Below, one piece after another: positions 5,969 to 61,708 of a stretch of 64,000 bases of DNA (position 1 is the stretch's first letter; the number at the start of each line of letters is the position of its first letter). The DNA is taken from positions 253,283-317,282 of the forward strand of contig MHTJ01000003.1 of assembly GCA_001823065.1 (NCBI GenBank). The letters are read 5' to 3'. This DNA comes from Candidatus Vogelbacteria bacterium RIFOXYD1_FULL_44_32 (GTDB taxonomy: Bacteria; Patescibacteriota; Minisyncoccia; Phycocordibacterales; XYD1-FULL-46-19). The position numbers and the translations under genes are program-made. Under the pieces are notes generated by a model, which ran no database searches, was not told the DNA's origin, and saw only the letters and a list, made by a program, of their open reading frames with translations.

Positions 5969-6045
5969 TCCGTGCTCCACTGGGGCTAGGAAAAGGGTCG
6001 GGAAGACTACGAGTTTTCCCGTGGAGGAAGGATTGGGAAAACCGA

Positions 6046-6125
6046 GGGTTTCCCAGACCGCAAGCGGTGCAAGCGGTAGTCCTTTTTTCAATCAAAAAAT
6101 GCCGACTTTGCTGGTCGGTATTTTT
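6046..6125 (+). terminator. tandem hairpins with U-runs downstream of rpsI (intrinsic terminator GCCGAC-TTTGCT-GGTCGG + T-run at 6101-6125)
   Basis: Second hairpin GCCGACTTTGCTGGTCGG is followed by TATTTTT. The first GC-rich hairpin (CCGCAAGCGG...) is followed by TTTTTT at 6084-6089. Confidence 0.6.
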
Positions 6126-6174
6126 AAATTATGAGTCCTTGACCTCTGGCTCTAATATTGTAATATAACCACAT

Positions 6175-10582: not shown

Positions 10583-10609
10583 TTTGATTTTATTTTGATT
10601 CGGTATAAT
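10583..10609 (+). promoter_or_regulatory. putative sigma70-type promoter (TTGATT-N14-TATAAT) driving a non-coding transcript
   Basis: TATAAT at 10604-10609; TTGATT at 10584-10589 (short spacer). Immediately after the dnaJ stop. Confidence 0.4.
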
Positions 10610-10615
10610 ATATCG

Positions 10616-10945
10616 CCTAGGTGGATGTAGTTAGGTTATGTGGCCAGCTACAGGATATCCACCTTCTTGAGTTCTTTTTTGTGCGGAGGATTTGCTGTGG
10701 GTAATACTTCCTAGCTCCTAGGGCTTGCTTACCGGTTGGTAAGCCCGGATCACGACACAGGTCTTTTGCTACCTTGTGCGTGATCTATTTTAACCGGCGT
10801 CAAAGAGGGCGCATCAAGCCCCAGGGTAGTCTGTTGCTGATTTAAAGCCACCTCACCTCAATGAGCTCTGGACTACTTCAAAACAGTAACCACCCCACCA
10901 TCTTGCCCGAGAGGGAGGATTTGATTCCTCCCCCGGGCCTTTTTA
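10616..10945 (+). ncRNA. candidate structured non-coding RNA of unknown family (about 330 nt) ending in an intrinsic terminator
   Basis: No ORF of 60 aa or more on either strand. Multiple nested hairpins (GGTGGAT...ATCCACC, GCTTACCGGTTGGTAAGC, GATCACG...CGTGATC). Terminator GCCCGAGAGGGAGGA-TTTGA-TTCCTCCCCCGGGC + TTTTT at 10905-10945. Confidence 0.4.
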
Positions 10946-17054: not shown

Positions 17055-17058
17055 AGTA

Positions 17059-17086
17059 TTGACAAAAAACTCCTATCTGCTATAAT
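17059..17086 (+). promoter_or_regulatory. consensus sigma70 promoter TTGACA-N16-TATAAT
   Basis: TTGACA at 17059-17064 and TATAAT at 17081-17086, directly after the aspS stop. Confidence 0.7.
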
Positions 17087-17093
17087 ATTTGGT

Positions 17094-17297
17094 AGATGCT
17101 CATTCCTGCCTTGGGACCGTGGCCGAGAGCGGTTGGTAGAGTAGGACCTCCAAGCCTACCTTTACTCCAAACGCCCTAGTGCCGACCGTGATCGCCATGG
17201 TCCCAAGCAGCTGTCTCATAGGGGGCTATCATAATTTCATCTGCCCCCGTTTTATTCCCGAGGCCGACACACCCAGTGTTGGCCTCCTTTTTGTTTT
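17094..17297 (+). ncRNA. candidate small RNA (about 200 nt): long imperfect hairpin closed by an 18-bp stem, then two intrinsic terminators
   Basis: Closing stem CCTGCCTTGGGACCGTGG / CCATGGTCCCAAGCAG. Terminator 1 GGGGGC...GCCCCC + GTTTTATT (17221-17256). Terminator 2 GAGGCCGACA...TGTTGGCCTC + CTTTTTGTTTT (17260-17297). No coding potential. Confidence 0.5.
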
Positions 17298-17324
17298 AAA
17301 GGAAAAAAGTTACAATATAAAAAT

Positions 17325-40863: not shown

Positions 40864-41046
40864 ATGCGCCAAAGATCAGACTTAGAGCTCTCCGCCGAGA
40901 GTGGAGAGTTCCGGCCGTTCATGACCGCCGAGGAATACTACGACTTTCAGGACAGGTTTCAAAAACAGGTTGGCCCCGAGCTCGACCGCCACGCTGAAGC
41001 CAGGCAAGCCAGTGAGAAAGTGGCGAGAGAACATTATGTCCACTAA
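40864..41046 (+). CDS. hypothetical 60-aa acidic protein whose 3' end is duplicated about 760 bp downstream
   Basis: Strong RBS AAAGGAGG. GC-rich. Confidence 0.5.
   Translation: MRQRSDLELSAESGEFRPFMTAEEYYDFQDRFQKQVGPELDRHAEARQASEKVAREHYVH
40974..41039 (+). repeat. direct repeat copy 1 (66 bp; also the 3' coding end of the 60-aa ORF)
   Basis: 63/66 identical to 41738-41803. Confidence 0.85.
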
Positions 41047-41737: not shown

Positions 41738-41810
41738 CCCCGAGCTCGACCGCCACGCTGAAGCCAGGCAAGCCAGTGAGAAAGCGGCGAGGGATCATTA
41801 TGTGTCCTGA
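41738..41810 (+). repeat. direct repeat copy 2 (66 bp) and a remnant 3' gene fragment (encodes PELDRHAEARQASEKAARDHYVS*) with its own terminator at 41822-41850
   Basis: Three mismatches against copy 1. Reads in frame to a TGA. Confidence 0.8.
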
Positions 41811-43694: not shown

Positions 43695-43716
43695 CTTTTC
43701 CCCGCCTCTCTCTTTG

Positions 43717-43973
43717 GCGCTAATCCAGAAAATTTTGATTATTGCGAGAAGGATAGTAAAAATTAATGAGCCAAGTCGAAAAATTAAACTGTTTGACCCT
43801 GTGGAATAAAAACTTTAGATTTTAGAGAAATAACCTATCACAACACCTATTTTTTTAGTTTGTATTACTTTCAACTTACCTATTCCACGGGGGAGTTTTT
43901 AATTTTTCGCAAACGAGGTGAATATAATTTTCCTAGACTGAAGCATACTAATCAAAATTTTCTGGATTAGCGC
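43717..43973. mobile_element. MITE-like element: 257 bp bounded by perfect 25-bp terminal inverted repeats (GCGCTAATCCAGAAAATTTTGATTA / TAATCAAAATTTTCTGGATTAGCGC), no ORF inside
   Basis: Read directly from the sequence. The right repeat overlaps the murF stop codon (43967-43969). No clear target-site duplication. Confidence 0.55.
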
Positions 43974-49547: not shown

Positions 49548-49651
49548 TGTAAATCACCTCCTTTCAGTTTTTCTATTTAAATTACTACAACAAAAAAATA
49601 CTCACGTCAAGAGTTTTTAATTGGGAACTATATACTTAATTACCCTAGGGA

Positions 49652-51814: not shown

Positions 51815-51900
51815 GCGCCGATGACGAAAATGGTATCCGTCCTCGTTCTGTAAACGAGGGTTCCTCCCAGAACTTACGGGTTCGAATCCCGTTCGACGCA
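51815..51900 (+). tRNA. class II tRNA-like element (long variable arm), possibly a pseudo-tRNA, inside the IS
   Basis: Canonical T-arm ACGGG-TTCGAAT-CCCGT. Acceptor GCGCCGA/TCGACGC has one C-A mismatch. 3-bp D-stem with an 11-nt D-loop as in tRNA-Leu/Ser/Tyr. 17-nt variable arm. The anticodon loop TCTGTAA has C at position 33, so identity is unclear. Confidence 0.3.
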
Positions 51901-52085
51901 CAGAGTATTGACGAAAAGCGTCATCTGTATCCTAGCAGGATATGGGGACTTTGTCAATATTCAAAGTATAACACTTGGGGAGTTGTCCACGCCAACATTT
52001 TTATCAATTTTTCTGTTGATAAGGTGTACAGGGGCTATAATGGCAGCTTTTTATTATGGTAGGCGTAGTATGTTATAGTTAAGAA

Positions 52086-52293: not shown

Positions 52294-52458
52294 ATGACAT
52301 TAATAATTATATTAGCTTTGGCTGTAATAATCTTTGGCCTTTTTGTTATAAGTAAGCAGTTAGGTGATACTTATAAATTACTTGACGGAAAGTTTAATAA
52401 TAATAAAGACGAGTCAGAAATTGTTGGTAAAAAGCATAAAATTGATTTAGAAGCCTAG
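52294..52458 (+). CDS. IS-internal small membrane peptide (54 aa), paralogous in architecture to 52086-52244
   Basis: MTLIIILALAVIIFGLFVIS... Its stop lies inside the right terminal repeat. Confidence 0.35.
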   Translation: MTLIIILALAVIIFGLFVISKQLGDTYKLLDGKFNNNKDESEIVGKKHKIDLEA

Positions 52459-52595
52459 GGTAATTAAGTATATAGTTCCCTTTTAATTTGTATTTTTCCC
52501 AACTTAGAGAGCTTCCTTCCTTTCCGACCACTGTAAAGGGATAGTAAAAATCAAGGGGTGAATAAACAGGCCGGTGGTCAATGATATTTTTTCTA

Positions 52596-59000: not shown

Positions 59001-60248
59001 TTATTTAATCAACGCTATTATTTCGGTCGCACCGGCAAAACTTGTTTCGCCACTTCGGCGGTTTTTAACTTCAAACTGACCACTCGCGATGGTTTTATCA
59101 CTGACAATTACCCGATAGGGTAACCCAAGTAAGTCGGCATCGGCTAATTTTTCCCCTGCCGATAGCCCCCGATCATCATATAAAACTTCCACACCTTGTT
59201 TCGTCAAATCTTCATACAAATTATCAGCGCCAGTTATCACAGCTGGTGTATTACCTAGCGCCACCAAGTGAATCTGAAACGGGGCAATCGCAAGTGGCCA
59301 AACCAAACCGCCATCGTCGGCATAAATTTCCACAATAGTGCCCATTAAGCGGGAAGGTCCAAGACCATAACAACCCATTATGACCGGCATAGACTTGCCA
59401 GCCTCATCTTGATAAACAAGTCCGAGCGCTTCCGAAAATTTAGTTCCCAGGTGAAAAATATTACCCACTTCAATTGATCTTTTTTCCACCAGCGATTTTC
59501 GGTCAAGCCCGAGCTCAGCCACTACTTCGTCGGACAAAACCTCTTTGTTTATTGCTACCTTTTTTTGCTCATCTAGATAAATTGTATCTTCGCCGGCTTC
59601 ACTCTCAGTCTGAAATTCTTCGGAAAATTTACTAAAAATACCGCCGGAAGCAAAAGTGATATGGGTCTCGTCCCCTAAACCAACTCGCTGGAAGATTTTG
59701 ACATAAGCGGAGCGGGCTTGGGCGTAAAAATTTTGGTGGTCAGCTTCGGTCGCCGAAAAAGAATACAAATCTTTCATTAAAAATTCCCGCCCGCGCATAA
59801 TACCGGCCTTGGCCCGCAATTCATTGCGAAACTTAGTTTGAAATTGATAAGCATAAACCGGTAGATCGCGATAAGACGAAATATGGTCTTTCATAATCTG
59901 AGTCAGTGGCTCTTCGTGAGTAATACCCAAGCCGACCTCCGAACCATTTTTTAGCTTCGTCTTAAACCAGTTATCGACTTTAATGTCATCCCAGCGATCA
60001 GTCTTTTCCCACAGCTCTTTGTCCTGCAAAGCGGTCAACATGATTTCTTGGCCACCAATAGCATTCACTTCCTCCCGAATAATATTTTTTATTTTTTCCA
60101 ATACCCGTAAGCCAAGTGGTAAAAAAGAATAAACCCCGGCCATTTCTTTGTGGATATAGCCAGCACGAATAAGTAGTTTGGCATTTTTGGCTACTTCGTC
60201 CGCCGGGTCCTCCCGCCTGGTTTTGGTAAAGAGTTTAGTTTGTCTCAT
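59001..60248 (-). CDS. proS: prolyl-tRNA synthetase lacking the large editing (INS) domain
   Basis: 415 aa. Class II motifs, bacterial-type N-terminus MRQTKLFTKTRREDPADEVAKNAKLLIRAGYI, and a C-terminal anticodon-binding domain. Confidence 0.88.
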   Translation of the reverse strand: MRQTKLFTKTRREDPADEVAKNAKLLIRAGYIHKEMAGVYSFLPLGLRVLEKIKNIIREEVNAIGGQEIMLTALQDKELWEKTDRWDDIKVDNWFKTKLKNGSEVGLGITHEEPLTQIMKDHISSYRDLPVYAYQFQTKFRNELRAKAGIMRGREFLMKDLYSFSATEADHQNFYAQARSAYVKIFQRVGLGDETHITFASGGIFSKFSEEFQTESEAGEDTIYLDEQKKVAINKEVLSDEVVAELGLDRKSLVEKRSIEVGNIFHLGTKFSEALGLVYQDEAGKSMPVIMGCYGLGPSRLMGTIVEIYADDGGLVWPLAIAPFQIHLVALGNTPAVITGADNLYEDLTKQGVEVLYDDRGLSAGEKLADADLLGLPYRVIVSDKTIASGQFEVKNRRSGETSFAGATEIIALIK

Positions 60249-60324
60249 AACTCTATCATAGACTAAAATACCGAGGGGGTCAAAATCATTTACAAATATT
60301 TATTTTATGTTATTATATAAAGTA

Positions 60325-60621
60325 GAGGAAGTGGGAATATCGGGATGACTTAGAGGAAGTCATTTAAGCTCCCCGTGCAAAGCCAGTGAAATTCTGGGGC
60401 AAAGTAATAGACGTCCGCGAGACTAGGCCAAACCGAGCGAGCTGGGCTAGACCCAGCTTTAAAGGTTGCTATTCCTTTCTGGCAATGGAAACATTGTTAT
60501 TTTGCTGAAAGGGTACCGGATGCAAGTACCCTGTCTATTACCAAGTCGGATTCCGTGATCCCGACGGTCTGGCACGGCCTTTAGCGGGCAGTTTGCGCAA
60601 GCAAACTGCCCGTCTTTTTTT
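60325..60621 (+). ncRNA. candidate structured non-coding RNA (about 295 nt) ending in a strong plus-strand intrinsic terminator (CGGGCAGTTTGC-GCAA-GCAAACTGCCCG + T7 at 60585-60621)
   Basis: No ORF of 60 aa or more. Hairpins GGGTACC...GTACCC, GTCGG...CCGAC and GGGCTAGACCCAGC. AT-rich promoter-like region at 60290-60320. The terminator's U-run is on the plus strand only. Confidence 0.4.
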
Positions 60622-61708
60622 AAAACAACCGCCAAATATCAAAGAAAGTTACCACCAGCATAAGACCGATGAGTAACAAAAAACCAACTAAATTGAAAAT
60701 ATTAGCAATTTTGGGCCGAATTGGTGAACCCTTGACCGCTTCAATTAAAAGGAAAAATAACCGCCCGCCGTCGAGGGCGGGAAAGGGCATTAAATTGATA
60801 ACAGCCAAATCCAGGGAAATAAAAGCGGCAAAAGTTAGCAGATAAACCCAGCCGAGGGAGCGGGCGTCCCCCACTAGACCAGCAATACCCACCGGCCCCA
60901 TCACCGTATCTTTAACACTGCCCCCCGCCCATAACCCTTGAACCATATCACCTAGCCCACTAAAAATCATTTTGGTCATTCCCCAAGTCTGGAAAAACCC
61001 CTTGCTGATAGCTTGTAGTGGTGGTAAGCGTAAGGTACCAATCCCACCCAGAGCAACCCCAATCGCTTTACCCTCTTCGATTAGGCCGGCTTCGGGAACT
61101 AATGATACTTGGCTTTTTTTATCACCGCGCTCATAGCCAATAGTGACTAGGTCAGGAGATTTTTTTATCACTTCTTGAAACCGCGCCACGGTCGGACGAT
61201 TTACATTTTGCCGACCAGAGGCAATATAAGTAATAACATCACCTGTTTTTAACCCCGCCTTGGCTGCGGGCGAACCAGCACTGACCTGAATAATAGCCGT
61301 CCGCACATCGGTCAATTGGACATCGGTCGCTTGGCTAGTGGCTAGTGGCAACCCCGACATAAAACCAATCGAAATAAACAACCACGCTAATAGCCAATTA
61401 AAAAAGACGCCCGCCACTAATATAGTCGCTTGTTGCCACTTCGGCCTAGCGGTCAGACTACGAGCGTGCTCTGGACCAGCTTCGGTATTGGCATCAGGGG
61501 TTTCACCAAAAATTTTTACGAAACCACCAAAAGGAATAAAATTGAGTGAATATTCAGTCTCTCCTAACCGGCGAGCATAAGCGCGGGGAGGAAAACCCAA
61601 ACCAAATTCATCGACGCGAACCCCAAAAAGCTTGGCCGCCAAAAAATGGCCGAGCTCATGGACAAATACCAAGACAGCAATAATAAAAATAAAAAGGACA
61701 ATAGTCAT
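60620..61708 (-). CDS. rseP: RIP metalloprotease RseP (site-2 protease)
   Basis: 362 aa. HExxH in TM1 (VFVHELGHFLAAK), a PDZ domain and the LDG motif (ALDGGRLFF). Confidence 0.9.
   Translation of the reverse strand: MTIVLFIFIIAVLVFVHELGHFLAAKLFGVRVDEFGLGFPPRAYARRLGETEYSLNFIPFGGFVKIFGETPDANTEAGPEHARSLTARPKWQQATILVAGVFFNWLLAWLFISIGFMSGLPLATSQATDVQLTDVRTAIIQVSAGSPAAKAGLKTGDVITYIASGRQNVNRPTVARFQEVIKKSPDLVTIGYERGDKKSQVSLVPEAGLIEEGKAIGVALGGIGTLRLPPLQAISKGFFQTWGMTKMIFSGLGDMVQGLWAGGSVKDTVMGPVGIAGLVGDARSLGWVYLLTFAAFISLDLAVINLMPFPALDGGRLFFLLIEAVKGSPIRPKIANIFNLVGFLLLIGLMLVVTFFDIWRLF

Follow-up and report, generated by a model that had tools for sequence, protein, structure and literature searches.

The closest described counterparts of the RNA considered here are orphan bacterial RNAs of complex fold, namely the raiA motif RNA, OLE, ROOL and GOLLD, with which it shares a stand-alone unit carrying its own promoter and terminator, multi-helix junctions, conserved loops and junctions combined with covarying stems, GNRA tetraloops, a possible long-range pairing or pseudoknot, and the lack of an obvious target gene. 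The candidate resides in a stretch of 64,000 nucleotides (nt), the whole of which we refer to as the window, from Candidatus Vogelbacteria bacterium RIFOXYD1_FULL_44_32 (Patescibacteria, Paceibacteria), where it lies inside the 371-nt spacer between rseP and proS; RseP and ProS of the window agree fully with the NCBI entries for this genome, and the same DNA recurs in several Rifle aquifer assemblies. The Patescibacteria, or candidate phyla radiation (CPR), have minimal genomes and are host-dependent, and to our knowledge almost nothing is known of their non-coding RNAs. We consider it probable that the rseP–proS spacer contains an independently transcribed, non-coding RNA gene of complex fold and uncatalogued family, which would be accessory within a small clade of Vogelbacteria.

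The candidate is nevertheless distinct from each of these systems. It matches none of the raiA, OLE, ROOL and GOLLD models in Rfam 15, and OLE, ROOL and GOLLD are much longer than its ~260 nt plus terminator. Moreover, these RNAs are spread over whole phyla or phages, whereas the candidate is found in two species of one CPR genus-level clade. Small RNAs (sRNAs) of the EutX/Rli55 type likewise comprise a conserved structured domain with an intrinsic terminator directly behind it and no downstream coding gene, but the candidate has no known aptamer match, antiterminator pairing or known sequestration target. As in 6S RNA and the Y RNA YrlA, the gene stands alone, and its paired ends could form a long, conserved and irregular closing helix suited to protein binding (the A:G rod model described below). 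In contrast to 6S RNA, it has a branched five-hairpin domain at its centre instead of a central-bubble rod, and in contrast to YrlA, it has neither an adjacent rsr gene nor a tRNA-like module (ARAGORN, Rfam).

The evidence for the RNA comes predominantly from a homologue at the same place in a related genome, L086 (L086/L087, GCA_964539475.1), where the spacer measures 416 nt. In the body of the L086 copy, invariant blocks alternate with hairpins that differ in sequence from those of the window but keep their pairing. The blocks shared by both copies are AGAGGAAGUGGGAAUAUCGGGAU, CUCCCCGUGCAAAGC, the UGAAAUU loop, AAACCGA, UUUAAAGGUU, the GAAA tetraloop, GCYGAAAG, the loop CGGAUGCAA and GUCGRAUUCCGYGAUCCCGACGGUCUGGCACGGCCU. 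Alignments generated first with MAFFT and RNAalifold (A1 and A3) misaligned the centre and were replaced by a register-controlled alignment (A5), which contains 81 pairs in 12 helices. All of its cells (153/153) are standard pairs, without a single broken pair; in 29 pairs both sides have changed, compared with 0-3 in control alignments in which the 3' partner was slid by 1-3 columns and just 37-45 % of the cells pair.

Identity between the window and L086 reaches 80 % in the unpaired columns (105/132) and 38 % at the peripheral helix positions (28/74), the latter approximating the neutral level of 37 % observed at the four-fold degenerate sites of proS. With pairing intact at near-neutral identity, the peripheral stems have thus drifted, whereas the loops and junctions were held fixed. 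The comparison shows that seven predicted peripheral helices are maintained by compensatory change and that the intervening sequences hardly vary, and the combination of unpaired identity and compensatory pairs, set against the neutral level, shows that purifying selection acts on the putative RNA. Folding energy contributes little to this argument. Relative to shuffled sequences, the interval folds with z-scores of -4.7 (plus strand) and -4.1 (minus strand); among 15 further intergenic gaps of the window that were tested, 6 fall below z = -5 on one strand or both. The folding energy is thus indistinct from that of the genome's other gaps and does not show an RNA beyond chance; it is the comparison with L086 that shows the RNA to be real.

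The same degree of constraint speaks against a mobile-element remnant or passenger, or a decaying gene kept by chance, which we regard as a most unlikely origin despite the patchy distribution of the element, its hypervariable slot and an internal 10-nt duplication specific to the window. Indeed, no direct or inverted repeats flank the element, no transposase or integrase is encoded nearby, and neither the window nor 86 other sources contain a further copy. Distant blastn searches of phage and plasmid collections gave no match, and scans of IMG/VR with blocks A, B+C, C-D-E, F-G and G returned chance or coding matches alone. We note that the 19-mer GATCCCGACGGTCTGGCAC of block G falls within the conserved phage protein motif IPTVWHKR in two IMG/VR sequences (L093, 5514-5532; L094, 8004-8022), a case that illustrates how short exact patterns of the RNA match coding sequence by chance.

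Transcription of the candidate is predicted to start at about 60322-60324, as judged from a promoter-like site that stands back to back with the promoter of proS (Table 1). The RNA promoter has identical hexamers, spacing and TG in both RNA-bearing loci, that of the window and that of L086, and its -10 element is degraded in relatives without the RNA (L001, L088). At the other end, the terminator overlaps the complement of the rseP stop codon (60620-60622) by its last two U's, and its hairpin is not followed by a U tract when read on the minus strand. The terminator of L086 lies at the same place, with 14 base pairs (bp) and U7 but of unrelated sequence, and the terminator stem (helix 12) contains seven compensatory pairs between the two copies. 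We therefore predict an RNA gene transcribed on its own, from about 60322 to the end of a strong intrinsic terminator at about 60621, which would yield a transcript of ~300 nt with a core of ~260 nt (60324-60582). This agrees with the earlier note, which had proposed, from the window alone, a plus-strand RNA of ~295 nt divergent from proS; its account of the terminator holds for the overlap with the rseP stop, which measures 2 nt, and for the U tract on the plus strand only, but the stem has 13 pairs, one more than stated there.

The promoter, the U tract, the GAAA tetraloop and the G-U pairs all point to the plus strand as the probable functional one. In alignment A5, G-U cells are present and A-C cells absent, and four of the G-U cells would become C-A mismatches on the minus strand, where the GAAA tetraloop would read UUUC. 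A functional minus strand, for example a processing or regulatory element in an rseP-proS co-transcript such as a proS leader, would suit the orientation of rseP, proS and all other flanking genes, which are on the minus strand, as well as the minus-strand fold (z = -4.1) and the largely strand-symmetric helices. On that strand, however, the structured region precedes the conserved proS promoter, which lies directly upstream of the proS ATG; the promoter and U tract of the RNA fit the plus strand alone, and relatives manage without the element in spacers of 21-138 nt, which makes such a role highly improbable.

Coding capacity does not account for the conservation. No ORF (open reading frame) is conserved between the two copies: all are at most 58 amino acids (aa) long, have GTG or TTG as start codon and are not the same in the window and L086, and the substitutions between the copies are pair-compensating. 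In a public annotation, a 63-aa 'protein' (P0121) is called over the RNA and its terminator (60485-60676, plus strand; L083 2859-3050); it reads TGA as sense and, when searched against 5.8 billion proteins, matched itself alone, and is regarded as an annotation artefact. The RNA probably acts neither as an antisense RNA nor as a messenger or leader.

Within the RNA, the 5' AGAGG would pair with the 3' CCUUU just before the terminator to form P1, and the invariant blocks A, B and G would make up the core. These blocks permit two mutually exclusive folds. In the first, A and G form a long irregular helix, which is predicted by RNAalifold and is also the minimum free energy (MFE) structure of L086. 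In the second, GGGA pairs with UCCC and CCGUGC of block B with GCACGG of block G (helix 4), with the complementary UCGGGAU of block A and AUCCCGA of block G forming a pseudoknot; this is the MFE fold of the window, in which CCGUGC/GCACGG is present, and this helix never varies between the two copies. The energy gap between the two folds lies within what a 7-bp pseudoknot would contribute, and the two are indistinguishable because two sequences and computed energies cannot choose between them.

The core would be decorated by hairpins, the first of which, H1, contains AGAGGAAGUC, a duplicate of the RNA 5' end found only in the window (TAGAGGAAGT at 60323 and 60351, the 10-nt duplication mentioned above). 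The loop of H2 appears T-loop-like, with U at position 1, A at position 5 and a closing G-C pair. In helices 6-11 of the central domain, both partners differ from L086 in 15 pairs while no pair is broken, and a covariance model of this domain (R1) scores 135 bits in the window and 151 bits in L086. We suggest that tertiary contacts of the GAAA tetraloop and the T-loop-like hairpin render the fold compact, and that the RNA acts in trans via its folded shape, whereby the core and the loops UGAAAUU and CGGAUGCAA would bind a protein, another macromolecule or a ligand. From the amount and pattern of conservation we infer a shape-dependent function: the RNA may bind a protein, another RNA or a ligand, and catalysis is conceivable. 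The single-stranded junction at 60426-60429 is a GGCC palindrome in the window and an AGCU palindrome in L086, a two-sided change that could fit a self-complementary dimer or kissing contact, or chance.

Table 1. Positions of the candidate RNA gene, its parts and its neighbours in the window
Feature	Position	Strand	Remarks
Promoter-like site of the RNA, sigma-70 type	60289-60316	plus	-35 TTTACA, 16-nt spacer, extended -10 TG-T-TATTAT; 10/12 matches plus TG; same in L086
P1, AGAGG with CCUUU	60324-60328 with 60578-60582	plus	would close the 5' and 3' ends just before the terminator
Block A, AGAGGAAGUGGGAAUAUCGGGAU	60324-60346	plus	23/23 identical in L086; holds the P1 5' strand and UCGGGAU (60340-60346)
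Hairpin H1, GACUU-AGAGG-AAGUC	60347-60361	plus	variable sequence; 5/5 comparable pairs changed on both sides relative to L086
Block B, CUCCCCGUGCAAAGC	60369-60383	plus	invariant; CCGUGC (60373-60378) can pair with GCACGG (60572-60577)
Hairpin H2, 7-nt loop UGAAAUU	60384-60396	plus	loop identical in L086; 2/3 pairs compensatory
Central domain, closed by H3	60404-60541	plus	GUAAUAGAC (60404-60412) with GUCUAUUAC (60533-60541)
Central domain, small hairpin	60413-60423	plus	
Central domain, AAACCGA	60430-60436	plus	
Central domain, H5	60439-60459	plus	
Central domain, Hx, UUUAAAGG hairpin	60461-60478	plus	
Central domain, GAAA-tetraloop hairpin	60483-60496	plus	
Central domain, GCUGAAAG	between the GAAA hairpin and H6	plus	
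Central domain, H6	60512-60530	plus	invariant 9-nt loop CGGAUGCAA
Block G, GUCGGAUUCCGUGAUCCCGACGGUCUGGCACGGCCUUU	60545-60582	plus	36/38 identical; holds AUCCCGA (60558-60564), GCACGG (60572-60577) and the P1 3' strand CCUUU
Intrinsic terminator, GCGGGCAGTTTGC-GCAA-GCAAACTGCCCGT	60584-60613 (stem), then C and U7 (60615-60621)	plus	13 pairs, 8 of them G-C
proS promoter, TTGACC-17-TATGAT	60283->60255	minus	back to back with the RNA promoter, directly upstream of the proS ATG
proS, prolyl-tRNA synthetase without editing domain	59001-60248	minus	NCBIfam
rseP, site-2 protease	60620-61708	minus	NCBIfam; converges on the RNA gene

At ~260 nt, the core is close in size to the most compact bacterial RNase P RNAs. 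The likeness to type A RNase P RNA (RF00010), especially to its specificity (S) domain, includes a size near the minimal forms, paired ends, a purine-rich GAGGAAGU near the 5' end, a hairpin-rich centre, A-rich junctions and modules of GAAAG followed by a hairpin. Block A opens with AGAGGAAGU, which resembles GAGGAAAGU of conserved region (CR) I, and short strings (GUGCAA, CAAACCG with a hairpin, GAAAG with a hairpin, and UGGCACGG) occur, by eye, in the order of the E. coli S domain. The two RNase P-like stretches that the earlier note pointed out, in an order it considered wrong for a canonical RNase P RNA, AGAGGAAGUC...GCUCC (60352-60372) and GAAAGGGU (60507-60514), are indeed present, and in the second GAAAG alone is conserved, GGGU being part of a covarying stem. 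In addition, default Rfam thresholds are known to miss RNase P RNAs of the CPR, in which several helices can be lost: 10 of 35 circular CPR genomes gave no RNase P RNA match at these thresholds, and diverged representatives without P12-P14, P16-P18 or the UGG motif emerged only once the bit score was lowered to ~5 (PMC8172020).

Nevertheless, a highly diverged RNase P RNA (rnpB) is a very unlikely identity for the candidate, in line with the earlier note, which had refrained from this assignment. Neither copy matches RF00010 or RF00011 even at E<=10 in stretches of 268-601 nt. The clearest CR-I-like string, AGAGGAAGUC within H1 (60352-60360), aligns to the entirely different UGUCACUACG in L086 and is thus unconserved, and whereas CR-I (GAGGAAAGUCC) is expected just after P3, the conserved AGAGGAAGUGGG sits 5' of its hairpin rather than 3'. 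Neither a conserved CR-V of the ACAGAA...GGCUUA type (ACA-R-AA) nor a P4 with a bulged U came to light on manual inspection of both copies; where the invariant 3' block pairs with block A, such a bulge is missing. Helix order and topology also differ, since the long-range helices either cross (UCGGGAU/AUCCCGA and CCGUGC/GCACGG) or form one rod, in place of the nested P1-P2-P4-P5-P7. The 6-8-mers shared with RNase P RNA are about as frequent as chance predicts for 265 x 377 nt (~6 shared 7-mers expected), and model R1 scores at most ~2 bits inside E. coli rnpB. Finally, an essential gene would have had to leave the slot in L001, which is as close to the window as L086 and lacks the RNA at this locus. 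A motif scan and Rfam gave no other rnpB within the 64-kb window. A permuted RNase P RNA was considered on account of H1, which resembles a self-closed P4 in the window, and was rejected, H1 being unconserved.

Among the 4227 models of Rfam 15, a single tRNA was detected in the whole window at gathering scores. At E<=10 and with lax filters, stretches of 601, 268 and 381 nt covering both copies gave no RNase P RNA, 6S RNA, signal recognition particle (SRP) RNA, transfer-messenger RNA (tmRNA), T-box or riboswitch. What was returned for the window copy is noise (Cupriavidus-1, mir-274, DicF on the terminator, and sX14), and the corresponding list for L086 has no family in common with it. ARAGORN likewise finds no tmRNA, and two tRNAs, in the window, and tmRNA was rejected on the results of both programs. 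SRP RNA was rejected in the same Rfam search, the GAAA hairpin being a plain covarying stem without internal loops, as was 6S RNA, since the fold supported by covariation is branched, with five hairpins inside H3. A lysine leader and the topology of a group I intron were likewise considered and rejected. The loop of H6 resembles the CsrA site obtained by SELEX (systematic evolution of ligands by exponential enrichment), but a CsrA sponge was discarded, as GGA sites are too few and the remaining conservation is too extensive.

The spacer lies within a conserved gene block, mreB-holB-frr-rseP-proS-mreB-mreC. A scan of reference genomes with ProS yielded 80 Paceibacteria loci, most of which retain the order frr-rseP-proS-mreB, and the spacer was measured in 64 of them, where it ranges from 21 to 2880 nt. 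Protein searches with RseP and ProS identify three species at genus-like distance, namely the window, L001 and L086. Relative to the window, L086 and L001 have identities of 84 % and 73 % in ProS, 75 % and 81 % in RseP, and 79 % and 82 % in Frr, respectively; L001 lies at roughly the same distance as L086, but its spacer measures 77 nt and lacks the RNA. Altogether, the RNA is absent from the syntenic slot in ~70 other Paceibacteria loci, that of the equally close L001 among them, and likewise from the slot in L088 and L092; L088, L092, L095, L096, L109 and L111, which were looked up as further relatives, have a short spacer or other cargo. Searches of the 80 proS loci with blastn and nhmmer, using the single sequence and a two-sequence profile, gave no homologue, and model R1, run against 86 sources (715 kb) and L109-L111, recovered the two known copies and false positives inside coding sequence. 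The exact 19-mer TCCCGACGGTCTGGCACGG had three matches among those listed for metagenome contigs, all of them due to chance.

In other genomes the slot often carries one small ORF that runs counter to rseP and proS and is followed by a terminator of its own (loci L001-L080, L088-L096 and L109-L111). Such cargo includes Cys-rich proteins of 82 aa (L045) and 84 aa (L008), a small membrane protein (L021/L029), a 64-aa protein (L109) and a further example in L095; the spacers of L056, L059 and L079 encode a CPBP-like membrane protease on the other strand. Long spacers with unrelated cargo identify the rseP–proS slot as a hot spot for accessory genes, and since its spacer carries different small cargo genes in other Paceibacteria, the RNA would be dispensable or lineage-specific. 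The earlier note had held that silence of Rfam together with a short or missing spacer in relatives would refute the RNA. Rfam assigns nothing, and the spacer is short in most relatives (<140 nt in 25/64, one of the two closest species among them), yet the element is conserved in L086. In view of this conservation and its compensatory changes, which establish a functional RNA of limited spread, that expectation was too strict.

The RNA adjoins proS and contains UCGGGAU and AUCCCGA, the latter of which holds the Pro codons CCC and CCG, and UCGGGA is the anticodon-loop sequence of tRNA-Pro(CGG). A coincidence is possible, and may be suspected because the slot holds unrelated cargo elsewhere. These strings might fit a ligand- or tRNA-sensing leader of riboswitch or T-box type, the terminator of which would gate antisense transcription into rseP-frr, or a riboswitch sRNA of the EutX/Rli55 type. 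Also in favour of such a device are the architecture, a large, conserved fold closed by P1 with an intrinsic terminator 1-7 nt behind, and the T-loop-like hairpin; read-through past the terminator would run antisense to rseP. We nonetheless regard it as quite unlikely. No antiterminator is evident: the terminator stems of the two copies differ wholly while block G is invariant, and no alternative pairing covaries. Both terminators are strong (13-14 bp and U7), no gene on the same strand follows up to the end of the window, and the proximity to proS is probably incidental given the unrelated cargo of the slot. None of the T-box, cobalamin or other riboswitch models matches at E<=10, and a known riboswitch or T-box (cobalamin, RF00174; T-box, RF00230) was rejected for the same reasons, namely the missing Rfam match, downstream gene and covarying antiterminator. 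In L086, GGUGAAAUUCC resembles a cobalamin motif; the motifs around it, however, stand in another order, so that this is a lead only.

Several points weigh against an uncatalogued, shape-dependent RNA gene. Every covariation count derives from one sequence pair in an alignment fitted by hand to the structure, and the core helices P1, CCGUGC/GCACGG, UCGGGAU/AUCCCGA and Hx, which never vary in this pair, are unproven. The gene is known from two carrier species in ~0.8 Mb of related DNA scanned with nhmmer and the covariance model, and its absence elsewhere is tentative, the reference-genome scan having used ProS and the metagenome scan one 19-mer. Sequences complementary to the conserved loops show no enrichment within the window, and no partner, ligand or target was found. 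Moreover, the candidate might conceivably be a very diverged known RNA, given that housekeeping RNAs of the CPR can fall below default Rfam thresholds (PMC8172020).

A bolder proposal would make the RNA the founding member of a new CPR/Patescibacteria class, with an invariant, possibly pseudoknotted core of ~110 nt, including a T-loop and a GNRA tetraloop, that serves as a catalyst or a specific receptor, for example a binder related to tRNA-Pro or ProRS (prolyl-tRNA synthetase); its role would then exceed that of a simple regulatory sRNA. The latter idea arises because the UCGGGA and CCCGA strings adjoin proS, and we consider the proposal as a whole rather unlikely.

Further structured units are present in the same window. 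An ORF-less unit at 10585-10945 (plus strand) combines a TTGATT...TATAAT promoter-like site, ~330 nt of strongly structured sequence (gap z = -5.8) and the terminator GCCCGAGAGGGAGGATTTGATTCCTCCCCCGGGCC followed by TTTTT; Rfam at E<=10 returned noise alone, and the unit may be another unclassified non-coding RNA. At 17055-17324 (plus strand), a perfect TTGACA-17-TATAAT precedes a rod-like sequence of ~150 nt (CCUUGGGACCGUGGC...GCCAUGGUCCCAAG) and two terminator-like hairpins (z = -6.75), with no Rfam match at E<=10; this is an unproven candidate sRNA, the shape of which is reminiscent of SRP or 6S RNA. Two additional intergenic regions with terminator-like ends, 5969-6174 and 43695-43966 (both plus strand), have z-scores of -5.3 and -6.9, respectively. 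ARAGORN reports an 87-nt tRNA-Thr(UGU) at 51815-51901 (plus strand), for which the Rfam tRNA model is silent at its gathering score, and which may contain an intron or a long extra arm or be a false call. Intergenic repeats comprise 40974-41039 and 41738-41803 (66 nt, 95 % identity, near tRNA-Glu) and, in inverted orientation, 49617-49649 and 52454-52486 (33 nt, 94 % identity).

An RNA of ~300 nt with ~40 % invariant nucleotides and purely compensatory helices indicates strong selection, and the sequence information it contains exceeds the need of a base-pairing sRNA. In the past, RNAs of comparable kind proved to be ribozymes, riboswitches or the cores of RNA-protein complexes. The weight of the finding is limited by the very narrow known distribution, that is, two species. 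If more members are found, the RNA would represent a new family on the short list of orphan complex-folded bacterial RNAs, and its small size, together with a defined 5' end and terminator, would make it amenable to study. More generally, annotation pipelines based on Rfam miss conserved RNA genes in CPR genomes, and this same 64-kb window holds several more candidates.

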